In this document: positions 1 to 36,748 of the stretch, piece by piece
How the letters are laid out: the number at the start of each line of letters is the position of its first letter
How positions within the stretch are numbered: the stretch's first letter is position 1
Virus record (IMG/VR): IMGVR_UViG_2925891887_000008
Origin: a virus
Taxonomy: Duplodnaviria; Heunggongvirae; Uroviricota; Caudoviricetes
Length of the DNA: 38,557 nucleotides
Reading direction: 5' to 3' (one strand)
Translations under genes and position numbers: made by a program
Notes under the pieces: generated by a model
Databases searched by the model: none
Seen by the model: only the letters and a program-made list of their open reading frames with translations
Told to the model about the DNA's origin: nothing

Positions 1-288
1 TCAATGGTTGGCGTCATTATCTTTTTCTCTTTCTGAACGTGAATATTGCGGTGGACGGTTCATCAGCTGTGGGGCAAGACGTTTTGCCACCTGAAGAATA
101 ACCACCACCGCAGCGGGAAGCATGAGCAAAACACCGAGAAAAATCATCAGAATCTGCACTTCTGGCCGAGAAAATGGCTCAGGCAGCGACAGGGAGTCGC
201 TTACCGACAGCAGCGCCACCGCCAGTAGCATCATTCCGATAAATTCCAGTATCAACACGCCTTTAGGCAATTTACCGATCGCGCGCAT
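1..288 (-). CDS. ybjC: Small inner-membrane protein YbjC (95 aa)
   Basis: Complete 95-aa hydrophobic ORF divergent from grxA; gene order ybjC-grxA-ybjM-ybjL matches the E. coli neighbourhood as I remember it. Confidence 0.7.
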   Translation of the reverse strand: MRAIGKLPKGVLILEFIGMMLLAVALLSVSDSLSLPEPFSRPEVQILMIFLGVLLMLPAAVVVILQVAKRLAPQLMNRPPQYSRSEREKDNDANH

Positions 289-447
289 ACGCTTCCCTCT
301 GCAAAGTGAGCCTTCAGTCTAAAACTTTTCACTGTATTGTGTTTAACAGTTATAGCTTTTAGCAATTAATGCAACAGGTTAAACCTACTTTCAGCGAATA
401 CATTTTAGCGTGATCATTACAGGCATAAATCTATGAGGAGAGAAATA

Positions 448-705
448 ATGCAAACCGTTATTTTTGGTCGTTCGGGTTGCCCTTACTGTGTGCGTGCAAA
501 AGATCTGGCTGAGAAATTGAGCAATGAACGCGATGATTTTCAGTATCAGTATGTAGATATTCGTGCGGAAGGGATCACTAAAGAAGATCTACAACAAAAG
601 GCAGGTAAACCCGTAGAAACCGTGCCGCAGATTTTTGTCGATCAGCAACATATCGGCGGCTATACCGATTTTGCTGCATGGGTGAAAGAAAATCTGGACG
701 CCTGA
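448..705 (+). CDS. grxA: Glutaredoxin 1
   Basis: ATG at 448 gives MQTVIFGRSGCPYCVRAK... with the CPYC active site, 85 aa; the track ORF 433..705 has an in-frame upstream extension. Confidence 0.9.
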   Translation: MQTVIFGRSGCPYCVRAKDLAEKLSNERDDFQYQYVDIRAEGITKEDLQQKAGKPVETVPQIFVDQQHIGGYTDFAAWVKENLDA

Positions 706-734
706 TCGTCTGACAAGCCCTCGCGTTGAGGGCT

Positions 735-1112
735 TTACTGATTTTTTCTGTGCTGTGGTTTAAACAAACTACTGATAAATAAGAAACACAGTGCCCCCAG
801 CGCACACCAGAACACCGCGCTTAGTAACCATGCCAGCTCTTGCCAGAATGAGCGCGTCGGTGAAAAAAACAGCCGCATAATGAGCATCGAACAGGGTGCC
901 GCCAGCATTGCGCCAAACAGAGGTTTCAGGACTTCTCTACGCTGTGAAAAGAAGCTGGCGACTGCTCCAGGAAGAATGAAAAATAGCAAGCCGATTTCAG
1001 GATGCCCGGCAGCCCGAAAAGCGCCTTTCATGTGCGTCGCCAGAAAAAGGCACACCACAATGAAGAGGACAAAACAGCAGATTGCCCCCGCCCAACGTTG
1101 TTTATGTTTCAC
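735..1112 (-). CDS. ybjM: Inner membrane protein YbjM (125 aa, multi-pass)
   Basis: 125-aa strongly hydrophobic ORF convergent with grxA; position matches ybjM. Confidence 0.7.
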   Translation of the reverse strand: MKHKQRWAGAICCFVLFIVVCLFLATHMKGAFRAAGHPEIGLLFFILPGAVASFFSQRREVLKPLFGAMLAAPCSMLIMRLFFSPTRSFWQELAWLLSAVFWCALGALCFLFISSLFKPQHRKNQ

Positions 1113-5194: not shown

Positions 5195-8100
5195 GCGTCG
5201 TATCCCCCCTGATCGCTGTAGTTACTCCTGGCTTTTGCCTTCAGCCTGCGTTCACGTTCATCAAGCTGGCGTGCCACCTCCCGCGCAATATCCTGCGCAC
5301 TTTGTCCTGGCTGCATCTGAATGATGATCTGCGTCGGTGCCTCAATCCTGTAAACGGGCGGCACAGTGGCTGCACGACTCACCATCGCTTCGCCGCCTTT
5401 CGCGGGAAGTGCCAAAGGATGCAACGGTGGAAGCTCTGCAGGCGCGGCAGCAACGCCCATCATTCCGGCAACAACGGCAGCCAGTGCAGCTGTATTTCTC
5501 CGGCTGGTCACATTTGCCGGGCCGTTAACAATTTCCGGCCCGTTTTCACCGACGATGCCAAACTGCCCGCGCGGGATATAGCCGCCGCTGTCATACATCC
5601 CCGCAAAGCCATATCCCCATGACGGAAAACCACCCGATGGCATCATCACTTTACCGTTTGTATTCACCGTCGCAGGTTGCTGACGCGTCACACTTTCCGG
5701 TAGTTTCGCCTTTGCGGCCTCTTTACTGACAACGCCGAGTTTCTCCAGCAACCAGGAAACGCCGGATTTCAGGGAGTCCAGCGGATGCATGACCATATTC
5801 AGCCCTTCCGCCAGTGCCTCCCCGAATCGCCGCCCCATTGCCGCTGCACTCTGCAGTTCGGCAGAGGTTGACTTAACGGGCGTCAGCAGATCAGTAAACC
5901 AGCCCCACAGCGCCTGTACTTTGTCGCCAATCCACTGGAACACGGGCTTAAGCGGTTCGAATGCTGCACTGACGGGACCTGCCGCCGCTTTGAATCCTTC
6001 CACCACGCCACCAAGAAATGCGGTGATGGGTTGCCAGTATTTCCAGACAACCAGCGCCACGCCCGCCAGTGCAGTAACCACAAGACCTATCGGACTGAGC
6101 AGAGCACCTAACAGACCAGATACGGCATACAGGGCAACGCGCAGCATCGCCAGTGGACCAGATGCCAGTACTCGCAGCACCGTGCCTGCGGCGGCCAGTC
6201 CACCACGCAGTACCGCCAGAGGATTCATAAACATCACAGCAACAGCACGTAAACCGGATAATCCAGACCGCAAAAGTGCAACCGGCGCACCTGCTACAGT
6301 TTTCAGGACATTTCCCGTCAGTGATGCCGTGCGGCGCAAAGACGACAACGGCGCAGTAAGTAAACCCGCAGCGTGGCCCGATGAAGCAAGCCCGCGTCGC
6401 AGCAGTGCCAGTGGTGCGCCAGCCAGCCAGGACAACGCGCTGCTGGTTCGAGTTACTGCTGCCGTAACGGAAGGTAACGTTTTGATACCCAGCACAGAGA
6501 ACCCCAGACGGATCACTGCCAGCGGCCCCAGCACTGCAGCTAACACCACCGCTAAGGTGCCGAGGCCCACGGTAACCGCAGCCACAACAGCCGCCGCTTT
6601 CATCAGTGTGCCCGTCAGTTCCGGGTTAGCTTCCACCCAGCGACGCAACGCCCCCGTGACGCTTTTCACCGTGAACAGAATATCCATCAGCGGCTGGCGC
6701 AGCGTTTCGCCCAGGCTGCTGAAGGTGTTCTGCGCTCCGGTTTTGACCAGCAACCACTGAGCAGAAAGTGAGTCTTTGTTGATGTCGGATTCTTTCTGCA
6801 TGGAGCCGAGCGCATCATTGCCCGCTGTCAGTTTTAGCTGGCGCTGCAGTTCCGGCAGGTTGTTTGCCAGTTTCGCCGCGTCATCGCCAAACTCTTTACC
6901 AAACAACATGGTCATGGCAGACAGGCGCTTATCCTGCGGCAGCGCGTTCACCTTCTCCAGCACGCGCTGGATGGTTCCCATCGCATCCTTCGTCATCTGC
7001 TTTTCAATCACTTCAGGATTGAGTTTCAGCAGATTCATCCCTTCAAAGAAACTCTTGCTCTGCATGGTGGCAATGGACAATTCACGCACCATCGCGTTTG
7101 CTGCACTGGCTGCAACCTCTGGCGCAGCGCCCAGTGTCAGGAAGGTGGAACCCAGCGCCGCCGCTTTACGATAATCCAGACGATCAGCCACACCGCCCAG
7201 GCGTTGCATGACATCAATGATGTCTGCCCCTTTCGACATGGCGTTATCATCCAGATAGTTCAGCGCATCACCGAGCTGTTCAATATTGCGGGTAGGGATT
7301 TTGTAGAGCTGGGCGATTTTCCCCAGACTTTCTGACAGTTCATCCGCTGGCAGCTCAAAGGCTGTTGCCGCCTTTGCTGCCGTACTGGCGAAGGCCAGCA
7401 GGTCACGTTTCTGGTCCTCCCAGCTGTCGTCAGGGTTTGCAACGTTCATACGCGCACCACCTTCAACCAGTGCAGCGAAGTCCACCGCACCGTTTTCCAT
7501 CGGCAACTGTTCGCTGGCAGCTTTGATGGCATCCTGCATTTCATAAAAACGTGCAGTGCGGTTGCCATTATCGTCACGCAGACCATTGACCTGCTTTGCC
7601 ACACCTTTCATGGCATCTTCCATGCTGGTATAGCTTTTTACTGCCGCCATCACTGGCGTCCCCATTGCCAGCCCTGCCGCCGTGGTGGTGGCTCCGGTTC
7701 CTGCGATGCGATCGCGCACCTCCAGCGAACGGGCATAACTGGCACGCGCTGCATTCATCCTGCGCTGAGCTTCCCCCAGTCGCTTCAGCCGCGCCTCCTG
7801 TTTCGACAGTTCCTGGTTATAACGTGATGTTTCACGGGCTAAACGGGCAGTTGCTCCCGCATCATCTTTCGCAGAAATTCCCGCCCGGTACAGTTCTGCA
7901 CGCACAAGCGCCGTTTGCTTCTGCAAATATTTTTGTTGTTCTTCCAGGCGTTGGACTGCCAGTGTTTGCCGACCTAAAGCCACAAGGTGCCGTTGTGATG
8001 GTTGTTCCATCGCTTCCAGCTCAGAACTAAGCAAATTTGCCTTCTGTCTGGCATAGTTCAGCCTGTCGCCTAACTTTTTGTTATCGGCCTGCAGCTTGCG

Positions 8101-14391: not shown

Positions 14392-14737
14392 TCTCTGCTC
14401 CTGTTGATACTGAAAGGGACACAGGCACACCGTTATTCCGCCGCCCGGTCAGCTCCACCACCATTGAACCGTCAAAATTGCTGTTAATAGTGATGGAATC
14501 CAGCGTCAGCCGTGGCTCCCAGCGACTCAGTGCCACATACACAGCCGACATAACCTGCAGGCGTAACGCCGGATTTTGTGGCTGATCTATCAGTGCCGAC
14601 AGCAGGGAACCATATTCCCGACGGGCAATGCGGCTACCCTGCGGCGTCAGCAGAATGTCCCGCACCGACTGGCGCAGATGGTCAATATCAGTAATGGCTT
14701 TACCGTTGGTATTGTTCATCCCGCTATAAAGCGTCAT
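14378..14737 (-). CDS. W: Baseplate protein W (gp25-like)
   Basis: 119-aa ORF between V and J. Confidence 0.8.
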   Translation of the reverse strand: MTLYSGMNNTNGKAITDIDHLRQSVRDILLTPQGSRIARREYGSLLSALIDQPQNPALRLQVMSAVYVALSRWEPRLTLDSITINSNFDGSMVVELTGRRNNGVPVSLSVSTGAENGSD

Positions 14738-15312
14738 ACCGGGCCTCCGGTTGTGTCGCCGCCTTTCAGGACGCCAGTATGCTGATGCGCATCAACCACG
14801 ATCCCGTTAGAACTCATTGCTCCGCCGCCCTGGGTAACGCCACCATTGATCACCACTTCGCTGTTAATGCGCGTGCGGTCAGCCTCCAGTACAAACTCAC
14901 TGGTTTTCATGGTGATGTTGTCAGCGGCCTCAATGACCATTGATTTGATGCCCCTGACATACCAGCGCCCGGTGGCGGGTTCATATTCAAACCAGCCACC
15001 GTCCGGGTATTCCGTCACGTTGCCGTCCTCAGAGCCTGAAGGTGGCGGAAACTGGTTTGAGTAGACCGCAGGCAGGGCAAACGCGGTTTCCAGATTGCCG
15101 CCAAGGCTGAACAGCACAACCTGCTCACCCACAGACGGTTTCCACCAGGTGCGCGATTTGCCCGCGCGCAGTGTCAGCCAGTTAATCCAGTTGGTTTCGA
15201 GGTCGCCAGTTTTCACCCGACACAGCCAGTTTGCCCTGTCCACTTCGGTGACTACACCTGTGCGGATCAGGTTGGTGATAAGGCGCATGATTTCGGTTAA
15301 TTGTGCGTTCAT
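14734..15312 (-). CDS. V: Baseplate spike protein V
   Basis: 192-aa ORF, first gene of the V-W-J-I-H operon. Confidence 0.85.
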   Translation of the reverse strand: MNAQLTEIMRLITNLIRTGVVTEVDRANWLCRVKTGDLETNWINWLTLRAGKSRTWWKPSVGEQVVLFSLGGNLETAFALPAVYSNQFPPPSGSEDGNVTEYPDGGWFEYEPATGRWYVRGIKSMVIEAADNITMKTSEFVLEADRTRINSEVVINGGVTQGGGAMSSNGIVVDAHQHTGVLKGGDTTGGPV

Positions 15313-16083
15313 AGGGAAAGGTTGCCATCAATAGCAAGCAGTAGACAGCCTTTGTAATTGTATTAGACATAGAACAAATGCCTTTCAATGGTCTGCGTTA
15401 GAGCATTAATACGTTGCAAAAGGTCGAATGACGTTGCGCAAGTTAAGAAGTTCAATGCTCTTAAAAAAGCACTTGAAAGCAACGCCTTTAATTATTAAAA
15501 GCCAATTAATTTAGGCGGTTACTATGTTATCTTTGACACAAAAGATGTTTATTGACAATATATAAGTTCAATCTAACAAGGAGAAAAATTATGCCAAATG
15601 AAAATCTTGATATTGACTCAAGGACTACCGAGCAATTATACGAATGGTATTTGCAAGGAAATTTGATAGTCAATAGACGTTATCAAAGGAAACTTGTATG
15701 GTCTCTAGAAGAAAAGACTTCTTTAATATCTTCTATGCTGCAACAATATCCTATTCCGTTATTATTATTTGTTACCATCAATGAACAAAGAGAAATATTG
15801 GATGGAATGCAAAGATTAGAAGCAATTATGAGCTTCATCGAACAGAGATTTTCATTAGATGGACAATATTTTGATTTGGACTCTATAGCTTTAACAAAAC
15901 AACTTAAAGATAATGGAACTTTAATTCAGAAAGAACCAATCCTTTCCCGTGATTCTTCAGCAATTATTGCACGTTATCGATTTGCAATATCAGAATATAG
16001 CTCCACAAATGAAAATATTGACGAAGTATTCAGACGAATAAACTCAAACGGGAAGATTTTATCCAAACAAGAATTACGTAGTG

Positions 16084-16092
16084 CAGGAACAG
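16084..16092. repeat. IS1 target-site duplication, left copy (CAGGAACAG)
   Basis: Identical 9-mer immediately flanks both IS1 ends. Confidence 0.85.
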
Positions 16093-16147
16093 GGTGATGC
16101 TGCCAACTTACTGATTTAGTGTATGATGGTGTTTTTGAGGTGCTCCA

Positions 16148-16423
16148 GTGGCTTCTGTTTCTATCAGCTGTCCCTCCTGTTCAGCTACTGACGGGGTGGT
16201 GCGTAACGGCAAAAGCACCGCCGGACATCAGCGCTATCTCTGCTCTCACTGCCGTAAAACATGGCAACTGCAGTTCACTTACACCGCTTCTCAACCCGGT
16301 ACGCACCAGAAAATCATTGATATGGCCATGAATGGCGTTGGATGCCGGGCAACCGCCCGCATTATGGGCGTTGGCCTCAACACGATTTTCCGCCATTTAA
16401 AAAACTCAGGCCGCAGTCGGTAA
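16148..16423 (+). CDS. insA: IS1 InsA
   Basis: 91-aa [26 protein letters not shown]... typical of InsA. Confidence 0.85.
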
Positions 16424-16845
16424 CCTCGCGCATACAGCCGGGCAGTGACGTCATCGTCTGCGCGGAAATGGACGAACAGTGGGGATACGTCGGGGCTAAA
16501 TCGCGCCAGCGCTGGCTGTTTTACGCGTATGACAGGCTCCGGAAGACGGTTGTTGCGCACGTATTCGGTGAACGCACTATGGCGACACTGGGGCGTCTTA
16601 TGAGCCTGCTGTCACCCTTTGACGTGGTGATATGGATGACGGATGGCTGGCCGCTGTATGAATCCCGCCTGAAGGGAAAGCTGCACGTAATCAGCAAGCG
16701 ATATACGCAGCGAATTGAGCGGCATAACCTGAATCTGAGGCAGCACCTGGCACGGCTGGGACGGAAGTCGCTGTCGTTCTCAAAATCGGTGGAGCTGCAT
16801 GACAAAGTCATCGGGCATTATCTGAACATAAAACACTATCAATAA
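16342..16845 (+). CDS. insB: IS1 InsB frame (expressed as InsAB' by -1 frameshift)
   Basis: -1-frame ORF overlapping the insA 3' end; slippery A6C at 16399-16405. Confidence 0.8.
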
Positions 16846-16860
16846 GTTGGAGTCATTACC

Positions 16861-16869
16861 CAGGAACAG
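16861..16869. repeat. IS1 target-site duplication, right copy (CAGGAACAG)
   Basis: Identical to 16084..16092. Confidence 0.85.
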
Positions 16870-18187
16870 TTAGTAACTTCTCTGAACTGGTCAGATCGAT
16901 ATCAACATCGATCAGAGGTGATACTAGCCATTCTGACATTATGAATCTCCAGCAAATGCACAAAATTTCAATCAGTAACGATAGATTGGAGTACGGGGTA
17001 AATATCGATAACCACTTTTATATAAAACATCATATTTTAACAAGACGAAGTATTCGTGATTCTGATGACGAGGAATTGATAGCCAATATCCTTGCATATA
17101 TCAGTCTAGAAGAAAAACCCACATCTGGGTCAACTTCTCTCGACACATTCTATGGTCAAGGAAACTCCTCTCATGCTCATGGTGTCAGACAGCAATTAGA
17201 GTCTTTCATTCAAACCAATAACGCTGCCACTATTAAGCAGAATTTCATAGCTGTATATGAATTAATTACAAGCCTATATGACGGAAAAAATGATACTTTT
17301 AGAAGCCATATTTTAGGGGAGGATAATTCATCTCAAGAATGCCCTCGTTATTATCAAGCTGTGTTTTTGTCTATTTATGAACTTCTTTTCAACCAAAATA
17401 TGCAATTAATTGATAAAGAAGGTTTATTCTCGCAATTAAAAAACACTGGCAATACCATAATTATGGTTACCGATGGTGGCCGCTGGGCTGCAAGCACTCG
17501 TGAAAAAAGTGTTAATGATCTTGTTGCATTAATAAGTCGTTACTTCCAACCTGCTCCTCAAAAGTATGTGAATCATGCTTGGGTAACTGAAATTCGCAAT
17601 CTATTAACAAATTCTAGAACTGAACAACCAAGTTATGATTTCAAACAAGGGTTCTTTAATTTATCAGGTAAAAATGAATTTGATGATGAATGTTTAAAAG
17701 GAATATTACAAACTTGCGTAGCAATAAATAATATTGGAAAAAGCGCAAAAGGCTATATTTTAGTTGGTATTGCCGAAAATAAATTAACCGCAGATAGAAT
17801 TCAACATTTATATGGAGTAAATTCAATTGAGTTCAATGGGTTCTATATAAACGGAATTGATCATGAAGCAATGTTAGTCTCTGGTAGCATTGATGATTAC
17901 TTTATGTTAATAAAACAAAAAATACAAGGATACAATTTCACTGAAACTCTAAAACAGCAGATACTTAAGAATATTGAGTTTTGCTCTTACAATGGCTTAC
18001 ACATACTCAAGATAACTATTCAGAGCACAGGTCAAATTTGCGACTTTGAGAATATGTTTTATATCAGACAAGGCTCATCGACTGATCCAGTTACGGATAC
18101 ACAAAAAATCTCAGCTCTATTTAACTCTTACATGAACAGCTAATCAATCGCCATCTCCACTGGAGCTGGCTTATGGATAAAAACAAA

Positions 18188-18226
18188 AGACGAGAGGGCT
18201 ATTTAAACCTCCTCGTCTTTATTTTG
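18188..18226. terminator. Hairpin plus T-tract between the convergent cargo gene and gene S
   Basis: AGACGAGAGGG / CCTCCTCGTCT inverted repeat followed by TTTATTTTG. Confidence 0.4.
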
Positions 18227-18665
18227 ATAGCTCCTCCTTTATGCTCATAATAATATTTTCTTCTGTTTTATAAGATAAGCCCAATAAAGTACGTTGCGGA
18301 TATTTCGCGATTAAACCTTTTTTATTTACCCGATCACGCAGGCCGTAATGGTGAACACGGGCAATACGCTGTACCATACCTTCAAACTGCACGCTGGCAG
18401 AATCGGCGCTGGCGGCAGTTTTCAGGTATTTTGTGGTGCGAAGCTTTGTAAACATCTGACGTTTGATGCGCCCCTTTTTACTACGTGCTGTTACCCTTCG
18501 CGGTTCATAGCTGCTGCCATCAGGATTACGCTGCATCCTGATGTTCTGCTGCTGTGTCCGGCGCAGTTCCTGCGCCAGCTGGCGCATCATGCGGCTTCTT
18601 GCGGCTGGCTCCAGATTCGCCAGCAAGGCACTCAGCCAGTCGTCCACCTTCTGCAATTCAGCCAC
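18219..18665 (-). CDS. S: Tail completion protein S
   Basis: 148-aa ORF following R in P2 order. Confidence 0.8.
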   Translation of the reverse strand: MAELQKVDDWLSALLANLEPAARSRMMRQLAQELRRTQQQNIRMQRNPDGSSYEPRRVTARSKKGRIKRQMFTKLRTTKYLKTAASADSASVQFEGMVQRIARVHHYGLRDRVNKKGLIAKYPQRTLLGLSYKTEENIIMSIKEELSK

Positions 18666-26626: not shown

Positions 26627-26631
26627 ATTTC

Positions 26632-26655
26632 AACCGCCATCAGGCGGTTTTTTGT
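26632..26655 (+). terminator. Intrinsic terminator after Q
   Basis: AACCGCC-ATCA-GGCGGTT hairpin followed by TTTTTTG. Confidence 0.6.
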
Positions 26656-26710
26656 TTCCAAACCAAACCTACTATGATACACACAGTAGGAAAAAAATTG
26701 GAGCATTTAT

Positions 26711-27337
26711 ATGGATATCGAAAAGCTAAAAGAATTTTACGAAAAACTTTACTTTCAGGAAACGGAAAATAAAGACAAGATTTACAACAGAATTCAAATG
26801 ATATTTGGATTAATAGTAATCGACGCAACTATCGTAACATATCTGCTTAAAAACACATCCTTTGAAAATCATGCATTCTTTGCCTGCATTGTTATAGGAC
26901 TTTCATTATTATCAGTGTTTTTTATTTATAAAGCCTGCATGCTCCTAAAAAAAGCATTTTGGGGTAATGAATTCAAATACATTCCCAAACCTAAGGAAAT
27001 AGACGAATACTACAATGGCCTCATTAAATATGAAGCAGACTATAAAAAATATTGTGATAATAATGGGCTTACCTATAATGGTGAGCACTCATCAAGTAAA
27101 AAGTTCAATGAATACTTAGTAAAACAACTAGTAGAGTGTACTAGTTGGAATACTAAGAAAAATGAAATGAGAACAAGTCAAATATATCGAGCCACTAAAT
27201 TCTTTTTTTTCTCACTAATTCCATTAGTGATAGCGGTTGGCTTTTTTTTAGCGATGGATCTCGATTCAGCCTCGCCAAGGAAGACTAATGAGCCACATTT
27301 CATTATTATACCTGTAGATAATATCAGGAGATTATGA
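26711..27337 (+). CDS. AT-rich cargo membrane protein (208 aa, about three TM helices), unknown function
   Basis: RBS GGAG, ATG at 26711; hydrophobic segments at about residues 30-46, 55-73 and 164-182. Confidence 0.5.
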   Translation: MDIEKLKEFYEKLYFQETENKDKIYNRIQMIFGLIVIDATIVTYLLKNTSFENHAFFACIVIGLSLLSVFFIYKACMLLKKAFWGNEFKYIPKPKEIDEYYNGLIKYEADYKKYCDNNGLTYNGEHSSSKKFNEYLVKQLVECTSWNTKKNEMRTSQIYRATKFFFFSLIPLVIAVGFFLAMDLDSASPRKTNEPHFIIIPVDNIRRL

Positions 27338-27462
27338 TGGGAAAAGCCCCTACACCTAACAAGCCACCAGCGAAGACTCCAACTCCGCCGACACCGCCGA
27401 CACCGCCTAAATCTAGGCTAGTGAGAGACGATGATTCGAAAGCCAAAAGCAAAAGAGGTTAA
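27334..27462 (+). CDS. Proline-rich micro-protein a (42 aa; KTPTPPTPPTPPK core, SRLVRD motif)
   Basis: ATG overlaps the upstream stop (ATGA), RBS AGGAG; 9-bp in-frame repeats. Confidence 0.4.
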   Translation: MMGKAPTPNKPPAKTPTPPTPPTPPKSRLVRDDDSKAKSKRG

Positions 27463-27468
27463 AGTATC

Positions 27469-27642
27469 ATGATAAAGCCCAGCAACGAAGGAACTGGAAA
27501 ACCAAATTCTACAAGTAAATCACCTGTACCGCCTCAGCCGCCTCAGCCGCCTCAGCCGCCTCAGCCGCCTCAAACAAGGTTAGTACGAGAAAGCTTTGGA
27601 GAATACATTTCAAAGAGAGATACGAAAAATGACAAAAAATAA
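27469..27642 (+). CDS. Proline-rich micro-protein b (57 aa; (PPQ)5 core, TRLVRE motif)
   Basis: RBS AGAGG, ATG at 27469; (CAGCCGCCT)x4 tandem repeat. Confidence 0.4.
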   Translation: MIKPSNEGTGKPNSTSKSPVPPQPPQPPQPPQPPQTRLVRESFGEYISKRDTKNDKK

Positions 27643-27736
27643 CGAGCAAAAACCACCACCACCACCACCACCACCACCACTACCACCATCGTCCCGCATG
27701 CTATTTGATCACGCGGCCCCCCCTAAGAAGAAATAA
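27629..27736 (+). CDS. Proline-rich micro-protein c (35 aa; P9-L-PP core, SRMLFD motif)
   Basis: ATG at 27629 overlapping the end of b; (CCA)n tract. Confidence 0.35.
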   Translation: MTKNNEQKPPPPPPPPPLPPSSRMLFDHAAPPKKK

Positions 27737-27778
27737 CCTTAAGCCTGCGACTTAGCAGGCTTTCTTCATTAGCGCGCG

Positions 27779-27797
27779 CTCGTATCCCCGCCACGCC
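27779..27797. other. Candidate cos site (19-nt cohesive end)
   Basis: CTCGTATCCCCGCCACGCC closely resembles my recollection of the P2/186 cos core (complement GGCGTGGCGGGGA...); lies between Q and A as expected. Confidence 0.35.
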
Positions 27798-28139
27798 TGC
27801 CCGCTTTATGTAGTGGTTTTCATGCAGGTGCATGATCTACGCAAAAGCCCGCCAGTTCTGGCGGGCCTTAGCAAAAACGATCCTCAAACGATCATGCAAT
27901 CTCATGCAGCATAGACATGCACAGACGAGTAAAGCGAATCGGACTTTACGCAAGGTGAACTCCTCAGCGGGCATAATCAGTATGTCGGAAGATCTCTAAA
28001 AATGAATAATTCGGTTAACAGGTATGCTTACAAAAGCATATATTTGATTAAAAATCATGTAAGGGGGAGGATCTCAAACTGAATCGCCACGGGTTTTACA
28101 AATTTCGATAGTCTCTCTAACGTTTCGGCTGAGGTCAAA

Positions 28140-28565
28140 ATGAAAAGCTTTTACGTATTAATTTTAATTCTGGTTGCAAGCTTTGTTAGCGTCCCAGTTC
28201 AGGCGGTAACAGCTAAAAACTATGAGAAAGGAACTAAAGCTCAACAGAAATCAATATCTTACCTTTCATGTGCATTCTATGGCAGTAGCACACAATTAGA
28301 TCCTAGCTACACGGAGCAAGTACCTACAGCCGATATCAAGATATTACAGAAAGCAGCTTACCACGCTTACAACGATGCGCTCTCATACTTTGGCTATGAG
28401 GAACCAGATCACGAACAACGCATAATTGATTATGCTGAATTTGTGGCGTCGCAAGAAGCTGTGTTATGGGATAAGCCGGGAATGAATGGAAAGCAGGTAA
28501 CACTAATTGCTCGTTCTCTCTACAATGAGAGTAACTGTAACTTGTTACTGGACTCAATTAAGTAG
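28140..28565 (+). CDS. AT-rich cargo secreted protein (141 aa, Sec signal peptide), unknown function
   Basis: RBS GAGGT, ATG at 28140; N-terminal hydrophobic signal with ...VQA/V cleavage-like site. Confidence 0.5.
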   Translation: MKSFYVLILILVASFVSVPVQAVTAKNYEKGTKAQQKSISYLSCAFYGSSTQLDPSYTEQVPTADIKILQKAAYHAYNDALSYFGYEEPDHEQRIIDYAEFVASQEAVLWDKPGMNGKQVTLIARSLYNESNCNLLLDSIK

Positions 28566-28724
28566 GAAAAAGATGGTATTTTGCCCGTAGTTTCAACCTT
28601 AATCTCCGAACCTGTCGCAGAACGGGCGTTCACTCATCAAATAAACGCCACACCTAACGCCTCACTGTACTCGTTGTTCAACCTTGCTGACGCCAGAACC
28701 AAGTTCAGACGCCAGCAACTTTTC

Positions 28725-28958
28725 TTAATGCAGCCAGCTGTCGTCTTCCCACACCTTCTGCATAATCTTCATCACTTGTTTTCTTTCTTCGTCCAGTTGC
28801 AGTCCGGTCAGTTCCACACCGTTAGAGCTACCTTTGCGGATGCGAATTACCGTTTTGGGATACAGGGGGCGCAGATTGCGGTAAAGCTCGGATTCAAGGG
28901 CGTCCAGGGTAGACTGGCTAATCTTCTGCTCTTTATCGATCATTATTTCAATGCGCAT
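28725..28958 (-). CDS. dinI: DinI-family protein (DNA-damage-inducible protein I-like)
   Basis: MRIEIMIDKEQKIS...LDALESEL...KVWEDDSW parallels E. coli DinI; start taken at the internal Met. Confidence 0.75.
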   Translation of the reverse strand: MRIEIMIDKEQKISQSTLDALESELYRNLRPLYPKTVIRIRKGSSNGVELTGLQLDEERKQVMKIMQKVWEDDSWLH

Positions 28959-28968
28959 AAAGGTCACC

Positions 28969-29157
28969 TCAGCTGATGACATCCATTGAGCGGTTGTATT
29001 CGTGGGTTCTGATTTTTGCCATGAGTTCATCTGTCAGTTCAGAAACCCACTGCAAAGCCAGCCCCTTCTCTTCATCACTACACTCACTAGCCGCTACAAG
29101 CTTAAGAAAAAAATCAATGCGCTGGAGCTTCAAAGACTCCAAAAAATAGTCCTGCAT
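28969..29157 (-). CDS. Small SOS-controlled ORF (62 aa) upstream of dinI-like gene; possible Tum-like antirepressor N-module
   Basis: RBS GGAGG, ATG at 29157, LexA box about 45 bp upstream. Confidence 0.4.
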   Translation of the reverse strand: MQDYFLESLKLQRIDFFLKLVAASECSDEEKGLALQWVSELTDELMAKIRTHEYNRSMDVIS

Positions 29158-29200
29158 CTTTCCTCCTATGACACCACAAGCAATACTGTATACATAACCA

Positions 29201-29216
29201 CTGTTTATATTTACAG
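29201..29216. promoter_or_regulatory. LexA box (CTGTTTATATTTACAG)
   Basis: Perfect CTGT-N8-ACAG with AT-rich spacer, upstream of the minus-strand small ORF and dinI-like gene. Confidence 0.6.
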
Positions 29217-29310
29217 CACATAATAATCTTACTGATGTAAAACGTTTTTTTACGTTCATTAGCCTGATATGCCTGGTATTATTAAGAGCACGAATTGTTA
29301 ACCCGCGTAA

Positions 29311-35433: not shown

Positions 35434-36748
35434 GGGTCTTCCCTTGTTGTGGTGGCTGAAGGCATGATAATGGTGTATTTAATCGCCAGAGGTCACCGCC
35501 ATGGACGAAAAGTCCCTCTACGCTCATATTCTCAACCTGTCCGATCCGTGGCAGGTAAAGTCCCTTTCTCTCGATGAAAATGCCGGTTCTGTTACTGTCA
35601 CTATTGAGATCGCTGAAAACACCCGGCTAGCCTGTCCGACCTGCGGTAAATCCTGTTCTGTTCACGATCACCGTCATCGTAAATGGCGCCATCTTGATAC
35701 CTGCCAGTTCACCACTATTGTTGAAGCCGATGTTCCACGAATTATGTGTCCGGAGCATGGCTGCCTGACGTTGCCTGTTCCGTGGGCTGGCCCCGGAAGC
35801 CGGTATACGTTGCTATTCGAATCGTTCGTTCTCTCATGGCTGAAAATCAGCACCGTTGATGCTGTCAGGAAGCAACTTAAGCTCAGTTGGAATGCGGTTG
35901 ACGGCATTATGACCCGGGCAGTTAAGCGAGGTCTTGCCCGGATAAAAAAGCCATTATCCGCCCGTCATATGAATGTGGATGAGGTCGCCTTTAAAAAAGG
36001 ACATCGTTACATAACGGTGATCTCCGATCGCGATGGTCGGGCGCTGGCCTTAACGGATGATCGCGGCACAGAGAGTCTTGCCGGCTATCTTCGCACGCTC
36101 ACTGATGGGCAGTTGCTGGCTATCAAAACGCTCTCAATGGACATGAACGCGGGCTATATAAGAGCAGCGCGTATCCACTTACCCAGTGCGGTTGAGAAAA
36201 TCGCCTTTGACCGCTTCCATGTGGCGAAGCAACTGGGCGAGGTAGTTGATAAAACCCGTCAGAATGAACATCCGCACCTCCCTGTTGAAAGCCGACACCA
36301 GGCAAAAGGAACCCGCTTCCTGTGGCAGTACAGCGATAAGTGGATGACCGAATCCCGGCAGGAAAAGCTGATGTGGCTGCGTGCACAGATGAAGCTGACG
36401 AGCCAGTGCTGGGCGCTGAAAGAGCTGGCAAAGGATATCTGGAACAGGCCATGGAGCGAGGAAAGACGGAGTGACTGGCAGAGATGGTTGGCGCTGGCGG
36501 CTAACAGTGACGTTCCCATGATGAAAAATGCCGCGAAAACGATAGGAAAAAGGCTGTACGGGATCCTGAATGCGATGCGACACAGTGTCTCAAACGGAAA
36601 TGCGGAGGCACTTAACAGCAAGATCAGGCTGCTGAGGATAAAAGCCAGGGGATACCGAAACCGGGAGCGCTTTAAACTGGGGGTGATGTTCCACTACGGA
36701 AAGCTGAATATGGCGTTCTGAGCCTTCCCACCATGATCGGGGAAGACC
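35434..36748 (+). mobile_element. ISL3-family insertion sequence (1315 bp)
   Basis: Imperfect terminal inverted repeats GGGTCTTCCC..TGGTGG at both ends, single transposase ORF, 8-bp duplication. Confidence 0.8.
35501..36721 (+). CDS. ISL3-family transposase
   Basis: 406-aa ORF with N-terminal zinc-ribbon-like CPTCG...CPEHGC and a DDE-like core. Confidence 0.8.
   Translation: MDEKSLYAHILNLSDPWQVKSLSLDENAGSVTVTIEIAENTRLACPTCGKSCSVHDHRHRKWRHLDTCQFTTIVEADVPRIMCPEHGCLTLPVPWAGPGSRYTLLFESFVLSWLKISTVDAVRKQLKLSWNAVDGIMTRAVKRGLARIKKPLSARHMNVDEVAFKKGHRYITVISDRDGRALALTDDRGTESLAGYLRTLTDGQLLAIKTLSMDMNAGYIRAARIHLPSAVEKIAFDRFHVAKQLGEVVDKTRQNEHPHLPVESRHQAKGTRFLWQYSDKWMTESRQEKLMWLRAQMKLTSQCWALKELAKDIWNRPWSEERRSDWQRWLALAANSDVPMMKNAAKTIGKRLYGILNAMRHSVSNGNAEALNSKIRLLRIKARGYRNRERFKLGVMFHYGKLNMAF

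Follow-up and report, generated by a model that had tools for sequence, protein, structure and literature searches.

The Ex4(E/D)xK motif and the cleavage of tRNAs in the anticodon arm have been described for the Schlafen proteins, and tRNA cleavage has been demonstrated for RorSlfn5 and human SLFNs, none of which are DUF262 fusions (PMC13056530). Fusions of a DUF262 and a Schlafen domain constitute the pSlfn7 class, which comprises 109 sequences with a defence score of 0.76 (PMC13056530). EcoSlfn7 of E. coli UC4224 (WP_028985442.1; Perez Taboada et al., Nat Microbiol 2026; PMC13056530) is active when cloned as a single gene, with a 538-fold reduction in the plating of T7 and a broad phage range. 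Of the seven constructs tested in that study, only EcoSlfn7 and RorSlfn5 are reported as protective, and pAN247, the E. ludwigii construct, which was tested in E. coli MG1655 under its native promoter, is not one of them (PMC13056530). The published supplement provides just the first ~400 nt per plasmid; the EcoSlfn7 (pAN251) and E. ludwigii constructs were identified by their 3' ends and their sequences recovered from genome records. DUF262 domains are defined by the motifs QRxxxW, DGxQR and FxxxN (PMC12065111).

The orf30 site, between the late genes S and V, is one of three regions of phage P2 in which horizontally acquired genes gather (PMC3091744), and is occupied by a 741-bp ORF in R18C (PMC6823313). 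The site is treated generically ('within the late genes') in Rousset et al. 2022 and in the 2026 P2/P4 hotspot preprint, with DUF262, GmrSD and Schlafen unmentioned in both. Here, this site is described in a 38,557-nt stretch of caudoviral DNA (IMG/VR record IMGVR_UViG_2925891887_000008; hereafter the window). The locus is best explained, with good confidence, as a single-gene DUF262–Schlafen (pSlfn7) anti-phage system, which a P2/186-like prophage carries as a moron in its S–V site and which has been inactivated by IS1 (Table 1).

Table 1. Features of the S–V region of the window
Feature	Position	Strand	Basis or remarks
Baseplate gene V	14734..15312	-	
AT-rich foreign module occupying the P2 'orf30' site	15331..18327		Homology break against empty-site phage; GC profile
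TGT-N12-ACA dyad, P2 Ogr-type late-promoter element	15359..15376	-	Upstream of V, within the module
Shine-Dalgarno sequence AAGGAG	15579..15584	+	7 nt upstream of ATG, read from the sequence
5' gene fragment (codons 1-167 and one base)	15591..16092	+	ParB-like DUF262 domain
9-bp IS1 target-site duplication, left copy	16084..16092		CAGGAACAG
IS1 (IS1B-type), insA/insB	16093..16860	+	768 bp; terminal inverted repeats and RefSeq annotation
9-bp IS1 target-site duplication, right copy	16861..16869		CAGGAACAG
3' gene fragment (rest of codon 168 to stop)	16870..18143	+	Middle and Schlafen domains
Hairpin with T-runs on both strands	18186..18220	.	Direct folding
Tail-completion gene S	18219..18665	-	Pfam Phage_tail_S, 2.9e-39
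Alternative AT-rich 3' end of S	18219..18327	-	28 % GC, brought in by the module

Extent of the foreign module

The GC content of the flanks within the window is ~0.57, and dips to 0.30-0.37 over positions 15300-16050 and 16800-18300, while the block of 0.50-0.57 at 16050-16850 corresponds to IS1. Without the latter element the cargo has a GC content of 33.9 %, as against 50.7 % for the whole window. This profile bears out the AT-rich insert reported in the initial annotation, while the limits then assigned to it (15313..18226) were corrected to 15331..18327, as homology with phage 500465-1 (L004), in which the site is empty, stops at 15330 and restarts at 18328. With these limits, the final ~36 codons of S fall within the module, which stands in place of 159 bp of the empty site, namely the S–V spacer and those codons. 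In the empty sites of Fels-2, 4LV2017 and 500465-1, V and S lie just 68 bp apart. The S protein is near-identical to that of 500465-1 up to ~residue 112, from where it diverges to the C-terminus, with both proteins being of equal length and the GC content of the 3' end being 0.28 here and 0.57 in the empty-site version. Despite this replaced C-terminus, the Phage_tail_S match spans residues 3-146.

Counted on the minus strand from the A of the V start codon, the late-promoter dyad begins 64 nt upstream, and the empty-site phage carries a dyad of different sequence at the identical distance from V. By analogy with established P2 biology, the module dyad would act as the activator site of P_V. 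The hairpin folds at -15.9 kcal/mol on the + strand (z -3.8) and -18.7 kcal/mol on the - strand (z -4.8), with 0/200 shuffles folding as well, and was overlooked by the consensus scan because its loop exceeds the limit of that scan. It is probably a bidirectional terminator, which would serve both the cargo gene and the late operon ending in S. That both a late-promoter dyad and a 3' end of S belong to the module suggests that it is exchanged as a cassette among P2-like phages through the flanking homology. The V–S interval holds no genes besides the DUF262–Schlafen gene and IS1, and this foreign gene is missing from close relatives, as is the case for morons at the orf30 site. Where P2 itself carries the 261-bp orf30, a 1.8-kb defence-type gene is found here, and the swapped segment reaches into S and the V promoter region.

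Domain architecture of the rejoined gene product

When the two gene fragments are joined (15591..16092 and 16870..18143), as had been proposed, an in-frame sequence of 1776 nt results, encoding 591 aa and a stop codon. The rejoined protein matches WP_001132405.1, an intact RefSeq protein of strain CRE10, at 100 % identity, and the V-to-S stretch, minus IS1 and one repeat copy, is 100 % identical to that of CRE10 over 3155 nt. The gene does have the ribosome binding site ascribed to it, while the plausible promoter that accompanied this claim is unsupported, albeit conceivable, with no + strand site detected in a sigma-70 consensus scan of the 278 bp at 15313-15590. The intact protein is named 'GmrSD restriction endonuclease domain-containing protein' in RefSeq, where the 5' part in the window is annotated as a partial 'DUF262 domain-containing protein' and marked as a pseudogene. 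No NCBIfam family is assigned to the 591-aa protein.

The DUF262/ParB-like N-terminus recognised in the initial annotation is matched by the Pfam family GmrSD_N/DUF262 (PF03235; aa 26-165; E 1.7e-17) at 64.7 bits, well above the threshold of 33.2, and incorporates all three motifs, QRxxxW (Q32-W37), DGMQR (71-75) and FxxxN (F147-N151). The loose resemblance to AlbA_2/Schlafen domains noted for the stretch SYDFKQGFF...KGYILVGIAEN likewise held, with SLFN_AlbA_2 (PF04326; aa 419-575) covering this stretch at 27.5 bits, just 2 bits clear of its threshold of 25.3. The Schlafen catalytic motif E-x4-(E/D)-x-K is present as E419-QPSY-D424-F-K426. The residues Q32/R33/W37, D71/G72/Q74/R75, F147/N151 and E419/D424/K426 are invariant among 55 homologues, which range from Enterobacterales to cyanobacteria and down to 37 % identity. 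The predicted structure agrees with both domain assignments: in a confident AlphaFold model the N-terminal part matches BrxU, SspE and ParB, and the C-terminal part SAMD9 and SLFN5/11/12. The protein is modelled as a ParB/sulfiredoxin-fold DUF262 NTPase, followed by a helical, ParBDB-like middle domain (~aa 170-410) and a Schlafen-type RNase (~aa 415-591). A match to the blue-light receptor YtvA in the PDB sequence-profile search was spurious.

The RefSeq product name points to GmrSD, and a type IV restriction enzyme of the GmrSD/BrxU/SspE kind, which senses and cuts modified phage DNA, would likewise carry a complete DUF262 domain with its three motifs. BrxU (7p9k) and SspE rank high among the structural matches, and the PDB sequence-profile search returned a weak match to the former (E 2.9e-5). 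The similarity to both is, however, limited to 145-174 aligned residues in the DUF262 and helical parts, while the C-terminal 175 aa are predicted to adopt an AlbA_2/Schlafen fold. The DUF1524/HNH DNase domain (PF07510) which defines this group, and which the initial annotation could not recognise, had no Pfam match in the 591-aa protein even at E<=1. Furthermore, EcoSlfn7 acts most strongly on T7, the DNA of which is unmodified. Membership of this group is largely refuted by the lack of the C-terminal domain, although the N-terminal one is present, and restriction of modified DNA is a highly unlikely function.

In the PADLOC comparison, the best match was to NsnA (3.2e-23; aa 9-348 onto profile positions 49-334 of 385), and so extended across the DUF262 and middle domains, while PD-T4-2_A (1.4e-17) matched the DUF262 part alone (aa 10-181). 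The core of NsnA comprises a DUF262 and a ParBDB domain (PMC12065111), as in the window protein, which on this basis could be taken for the NsnA sensor of Menshen, or the A subunit of PD-T4-2, with its partners elsewhere. Menshen, however, comprises three genes, with a separate ABC ATPase (NsnB) and effector (NsnC) (PMC12065111), while the window protein, unlike NsnA, has an effector domain of its own. Genes for NsnB, NsnC or PD-T4-2_B do not adjoin the gene here or at the orthologous loci examined, and EcoSlfn7 functions as a single cloned gene. An NsnA-like protein is therefore present, but the gene context contradicts Menshen, and the two-gene PD-T4-2 system lacks its second gene; a role as a subunit of either is extremely improbable.

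The closest structural neighbour of the Schlafen part is the SAMD9 'DBD', deposited as a DNA-binding domain. The AlbA_2 domain might merely bind nucleic acid, in which case the gene would be a non-immune moron encoding a ParB-like DNA-binding or regulatory factor, with a function in, for example, prophage maintenance or gene silencing. The catalytic triad is, however, invariant across the 55 homologues, which would be unexpected in a purely binding domain. In addition, the full-length homologue EcoSlfn7 is an active defence protein, and the family, with its defence score of 0.76, is located in recognised defence hotspots. A non-immune role is thus considered improbable, and a DUF262–Schlafen defence nuclease remains the preferred reading.

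Inactivation by IS1 and distribution of the gene

The inserted element displays the features of IS1 in full, with a length of 768 bp, terminal inverted repeats of ~23 bp (GGTGATGCTGCCAACTTACTGAT / ATCAATAAGTTGGAGTCATTACC), insA/insB and a 9-bp target duplication, and is annotated in RefSeq as 'IS1-like element IS1B family transposase, programmed frameshift'. The open reading frame of the DUF262–Schlafen gene is not intact in the window, as IS1 lies after codon 167. Codons 1-167 are parted from the remainder, which precludes a full-length protein and leaves the system switched off; it is dead in this genome and therefore makes no contribution to the phage resistance of the strain. The nucleotide identity to intact alleles indicates that the insertion is recent, and says nothing on the upkeep of the remnant. 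Three independent IS insertions into this allele were observed, and IS-truncated paralogues are found on hundreds of resistance plasmids.

Downstream of the insertion, an intact ORF of 400 aa begins at 16941 and is annotated as a hypothetical protein in RefSeq. With IS1 and the gene sharing a reading direction, this ORF could be expressed out of IS1 as a lone, sensor-less Schlafen nuclease or a decoy. Its ATG, however, has no recognisable ribosome binding site, promoter evidence was not found in the sigma-70 consensus scan, and comparable plasmid remnants are plain IS-bounded debris. Expression of a functional remnant is consequently very unlikely.

The initial annotation had anticipated intact homologues at the V–S position of other P2-like prophages, and these were found in E. 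coli, E. ludwigii and P2-like contigs in IMG/VR. Of the 28 E. coli genomes carrying WP_001132405.1, 26 encode it intact at this V–S position, and the gene stands without partners between V and S, both here and at every orthologous locus examined. Relatives in P2-like prophages are also found at A–Q, the classical defence hotspot, and the family thus occupies two different hotspots, this one and S–V. Among GenBank phages, tblastn returned no full-length relatives, and the matches obtained were confined to DUF262 and spanned <=39 % of the protein. Deposited phage genomes are therefore essentially devoid of the family, which does occur in prophages and IMG/VR contigs.

Comparison with EcoSlfn7 and other defence systems

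The claim that this is a candidate anti-phage defence gene gains support from homology to the active EcoSlfn7 (34 % identity over 581 aa; E 1e-86; BLASTP), with the proviso that the window copy is a pseudogene. By analogy with the characterised systems, DNA may be the trigger and tRNA the target of the DUF262–Schlafen protein. Most likely, the DUF262 and middle domains would form a nucleotide-dependent sensor of infection, probably of phage DNA; the helical middle domain is of a type that mediates DNA binding in SspE, GmrSD and NsnA. Once triggered, these domains would turn on the Schlafen nuclease, which would cleave tRNAs in the anticodon arm, such that translation would be halted and phage yield reduced.

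The closest tested relative is that of E. ludwigii CEB04 (WP_172425358.1; P0015, pAN247), which shares 88.3 % identity over 591 aa, has intact motifs and occupies the same V–S site in a P2-like prophage but, unlike the window allele, is intact. Given its absence from the protective systems, defence by the V–S clade is unproven. Rather unlikely, and put forward tentatively, is that the V–S clade, including the window allele and the E. ludwigii orthologue, represents a specificity variant, the trigger of which is missing from the standard lytic coliphage panel and the activity of which is costly and repeatedly lost. Candidate triggers may include competing temperate or P2-like phages, P4-type satellites or a particular DNA state. 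Costly activity with repeated loss, if true, would account for the three IS insertions and the IS-truncated plasmid paralogues, and such a variant would provide a natural handle on DUF262 sensing when coupled to an RNase, not a DNase.

Several known systems share parts of this architecture. The GmrSD/BrxU/SspE type IV restriction and PT-sensing nucleases have a DUF1524 HNH DNase as effector, where the window protein has a Schlafen/AlbA_2 RNase-type domain, while the Schlafen/AlbA_2 tRNases RorSlfn5, human SLFN11/12/13/14 and SAMD9 have other sensor modules, including an Ig-like domain and a helicase. The initial annotation considered the domain combination non-standard if confirmed; the DUF262–Schlafen fusion is real, but had already been published as pSlfn7. 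The fusion was correctly recognised from raw sequence without tools, with the architecture having been validated as anti-phage only in 2025-26. EcoSlfn7 and the window protein share the three-part architecture (589 and 591 aa), the DUF262 motifs and the E-x4-(D/E)-x-K motif, and both are encoded as single genes on P2/186-like prophages. They differ in the second acidic position of the latter motif (E in EcoSlfn7; D424 here), in clade, in hotspot, with EcoSlfn7 located between the replication gene A and the portal gene Q and the window gene between S and V, and in state, with EcoSlfn7 being experimentally active and the window allele disrupted by IS1. The locus is a new, inactivated member of the published pSlfn7 kind, which adds context and not a new principle. 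WP_001132405.1 and the inactive-looking E. ludwigii orthologue lend themselves, as a pair, to comparison with the active EcoSlfn7 in studies of how DUF262 sensors are coupled to non-DNase effectors.

Reconstruction and intact copies of the interrupted gene

The stretch between the baseplate gene V and the tail-completion gene S is AT-rich (GC content 0.30-0.37, versus ~0.57 in the flanking late genes), with a GC-normal block at ~16050-16850 representing a copy of IS1. A perfect 9-bp target duplication, CAGGAACAG (16084-16092 and 16861-16869), borders this element, which interrupts a gene at codon 167/168. The initial annotation had rebuilt this gene by joining 15591..16092 to 16870..18143, and these coordinates proved exact, with fusion of the two parts (minus IS1 and one repeat copy) yielding an unbroken 1776-nt ORF coding for 591 amino acids. 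The ribosome binding site proposed for it is present as AAGGAG 7 nt upstream, and the GC profile and gene positions bear out the description of an AT-rich gene interrupting the V–S gene order. As IS1 cuts the DUF262 domain off from the remaining protein, the window copy is non-functional. Nothing supports the 3' remnant acting on its own.

Coordinates of features in the window and of related loci
Feature	Sequence	Position	Strand	Remarks
Baseplate gene V	window	14734..15312	-	
TGT-N12-ACA dyad	window	15359-15376	-	left edge of foreign segment
IS1	window	16093..16860	+ (insA/insB)	exactly 768 bp; canonical terminal inverted repeats
Hairpin	window	18186-18220	both	T-runs on both strands
Tail-completion gene S	window	18219..18665	-	
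Divergent S 3' end	window	18219-18327	-	28% GC
208-aa ORF	window	26711-27337		weak PADLOC '2TM effector' match (2e-4)
141-aa ORF	window	28140-28565		without matches
ISL3-family element	window	35501-36721		ISKox3-like; 406-aa transposase
EcoSlfn7 locus (L003)	NZ_CP104472.1	8001-9770		E. coli UC4224
Homologue P0064, residues 96-588 (L012)	plasmid CP061532.1	4001-5503		IS5-family element upstream; near pemIK
Homologue P0075, residues 106-428 (L013)	F-type plasmid CP134919.1	4001-5011		adjoining beta-lactamase gene
Disrupted allele (L019)	IMGVR_UViG_2718217860_000005	5251-5359		IS5 at window-equivalent 17617
Disrupted allele (L020)	IMGVR_UViG_2623620496_000006	1-747		IS1 variant at window-equivalent ~16941

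The rebuilt ORF product is 100% identical to WP_001132405.1 (591 aa), as annotated in strain CRE10, and the V-to-S segment minus IS1 is identical to that of CRE10 over 3155 nt, which makes the insertion of IS1 very recent. The 3' part of the gene and its junction with S are present in 28/5426 complete E. coli genomes, adjoining S each time. Using a probe spanning the insertion point, the IS1 site was found to be uninterrupted in twenty-six of these, while CFSAN064035 and 22AR0322 share the split form. Intact homologues at the V–S position, which the initial annotation had suggested seeking, thus occur in 26 E. coli genomes as well as in Enterobacter ludwigii CEB04. The layout of the window agrees with the CFSAN064035 prophage, a 186/Fels-2-like P2-family element adjoining ybjL.

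In IMG/VR, the same allele is found on two further contigs, each with an independent IS insertion of its own. One (L020) contains an IS1 variant (93% identical) in the opposite orientation, the other (L019) an IS5 whose CTAG target directly precedes the catalytic residue E419. In E. coli, F-type and resistance plasmids carry a paralogue (66-69% identical) as IS-bounded fragments only; the database clusters of P0064 and P0075 hold 1,685 and 1,100 sequences, respectively, and P0075 ends in a translated IS1 inverted repeat ('GDAANLLI'). IS1 and IS5 favour AT-rich DNA, and the repeated disruption may reflect this target preference or selection against a costly gene, with the data fitting both. A second insertion sequence of the window separates the CI repressor region from the integrase; the prophage is gathering IS elements and may have lost inducibility or excisability.

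Domain architecture and predicted function

Pfam comparison places a GmrSD_N/DUF262 domain at aa 26-165 (E 1.7e-17; 64.7 bits, threshold 33.2) and a SLFN_AlbA_2 domain at aa 419-575 (E 5e-6; 27.5 bits, threshold 25.3). Both the DUF262/ParB-like N-terminus and the AlbA_2/Schlafen resemblance read from the sequence are thereby substantiated, as is the lack of an HNH/DUF1524 domain, with no Pfam match to one in the window protein even at E<=1. In an alignment of 55 full-length homologues (identity down to 37%), the DUF262 motifs QRxxxW (Q32, R33, W37), DGxQR (D71, G72, Q74, R75) and FxxxN (F147, N151) are invariant, as are E419, D424 and K426 of the Schlafen catalytic motif E-x4-(E/D)-x-K. The N-terminal and middle parts match structurally to BrxU (9.7), PadC and sulfiredoxin (about 7) and SspE (6.6), and Foldseek returns the same families as the fold comparison. 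Together, the Pfam pair, invariant motifs and structural matches point to a predicted order of a ParB-like DUF262 domain, a helical 'ParBDB'-type middle domain and a Schlafen nuclease. The protein shares its scaffold with GmrSD and SspE, but has a Schlafen RNase-type effector in place of the HNH DNase.

No NCBIfam model matches the protein. In PADLOC it scores best against the profiles of the Menshen sensor NsnA (3.2e-23; aa 9-348) and PD-T4-2_A (1.4e-17; aa 10-181); membership of either system was ruled out on gene context. The GmrSD-type DNase implied by the RefSeq name is likewise excluded, as the DUF1524 domain is missing.

The protein may have a non-immune role in DNA binding, but such a role is a poor match for the invariant catalytic triad. 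The best account of the intact protein is that of an immune protein uniting sensor and effector in a single chain, with activity presumed for its clade by analogy. On the model of GmrSD, SspE and NsnA, nucleotide and DNA binding and the detection of infection would fall to the DUF262 and middle domains, and the Schlafen domain would then cut tRNA and arrest translation, both trigger and substrate being putative. The architecture, motif conservation, homology to an active member (EcoSlfn7) and hotspot context are directly established for the protein, and support its earlier designation as a candidate anti-phage defence gene.

Cassette boundaries and hotspots

In cargo-free relatives (500465-1, Fels-2 and Klebsiella phage 4LV2017), S and V are spaced by just 68 bp. 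Similarity to 500465-1 breaks off at 15330 and returns at 18328, and the foreign segment therefore comprises 15331..18327 (2997 bp with IS1; 2220 bp minus IS1 and one repeat copy), standing in place of 159 bp of the empty site. At the right edge of the segment, S has exchanged its last ~36 codons for a divergent version of equal length, and the chimeric product is still recognised as Phage_tail_S (residues 3-146). This altered end arrived with the cargo module, and the chimeric make-up of the structural gene implies that the cassette was exchanged through recombination within S. A TGT-N12-ACA dyad, the element at which Ogr activates late promoters in P2, starts 64 nt upstream of the V start codon; 500465-1 has a dyad at the same distance within unrelated surrounding sequence. 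The module thus seems to bring its own copy of a putative Ogr-dependent P_V late-promoter element, by analogy with P2. Furthermore, a hairpin is present whose folding is much more stable than that of shuffled sequence (z -3.8 and -4.8); it is a probable terminator for the cargo gene as well as for the operon ending in S. Taken together, these boundary features suggest that P2-like phages exchange the cassette through recombination within S and the V promoter region, and that it stems from a P2-like lineage richer in AT. P2 has three regions with a long record of horizontally acquired genes, and the S–V slot is one of them, the classical 'orf30' variable site (PMC3091744, PMC6823313).

Full-length relatives (~590-600 aa, both Pfam domains) occur in Enterobacter, Cronobacter, Serratia, Pantoea, Vibrio, Aeromonas, Pseudomonas, Comamonas and cyanobacteria, and 46 viral loci in IMG/VR encode one. 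Seven of the latter carry it between V and S (≥89% identity to the window protein in every case), and about a dozen between the replication gene A and portal gene Q (28-44% identical; EcoSlfn7 clade), while no P2 core genes are detectable on the contigs of the remaining loci. A Serratia homologue (68% identity) also occupies the A–Q hotspot, and a Vibrio homologue adjoins an integrase and a resolvase. The family thus shuttles among mobile-element hotspots, two of them in P2-like phages.

The window's own Q–A region (26627-29310), the classical P2 defence hotspot, contains uncharacterised genes, namely the 208-aa and 141-aa ORFs, as well as a small pseudogene with a DinI-like gene after it; these may be unrecognised defence cargo. 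In the GenBank phage collection, many T4-like Krischvirus/RB49-type coliphages match a short DUF262-like stretch at the N-terminus (aa 16-91) at 37-38% identity, which suggests that small proteins with DUF262 motifs are carried by lytic phages, possibly as decoys or anti-defence factors.

Relation to the published pSlfn7 class

The domain combination, which the initial annotation considered non-standard, is confirmed as a DUF262–Schlafen fusion, but had already been published as pSlfn7 in a catalogue of 5,930 prokaryotic Schlafen proteins (Perez Taboada et al., Nat Microbiol 2026, PMC13056530; preprint July 2025), where it makes up 1.8% (109 sequences; defence score 0.76). Seven Enterobacterales Schlafen systems were tried there in E. 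coli MG1655 under native promoters, with EcoSlfn7 and RorSlfn5 protective; once triggered, RorSlfn5 cuts the tRNA anticodon arm (PMC13056530). EcoSlfn7, traced to its genome record via the 3' end of the plasmid insert in the preprint supplement, is WP_028985442.1 (589 aa), which has the identical Pfam pair and shares 34% identity with the window protein over 581 residues (E 1e-86). EcoSlfn7, too, is carried by a 186/P2-like prophage, where it occupies the A–Q hotspot beside a DinI-like gene and the portal gene, a context of which no mention was found in the searched main text (PMC13056530).

The second pSlfn7 construct, pAN247 (E. ludwigii CEB04 WP_172425358.1), corresponds to homologue P0015, as the C-terminal 103 aa match exactly and the contig (CP039741.1) is the same. 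This protein belongs to the window gene's clade (88.3% identical; same V–S site of a P2-like prophage), but is absent from the two systems reported protective. The pSlfn7 family is therefore validated, while the window clade has one negative result, with a single host and phage panel. This active/inactive homologue pair is serviceable for specificity studies, and the two-hotspot distribution, the cassette boundaries including P_V and the S 3' end, and the recurrent IS insertions are further by-products of use. With this locus, the published DUF262–Schlafen (pSlfn7) defence class gains a member that an insertion has inactivated and that lies at a known P2 variable site; the kind of system is not new, but this individual member is.
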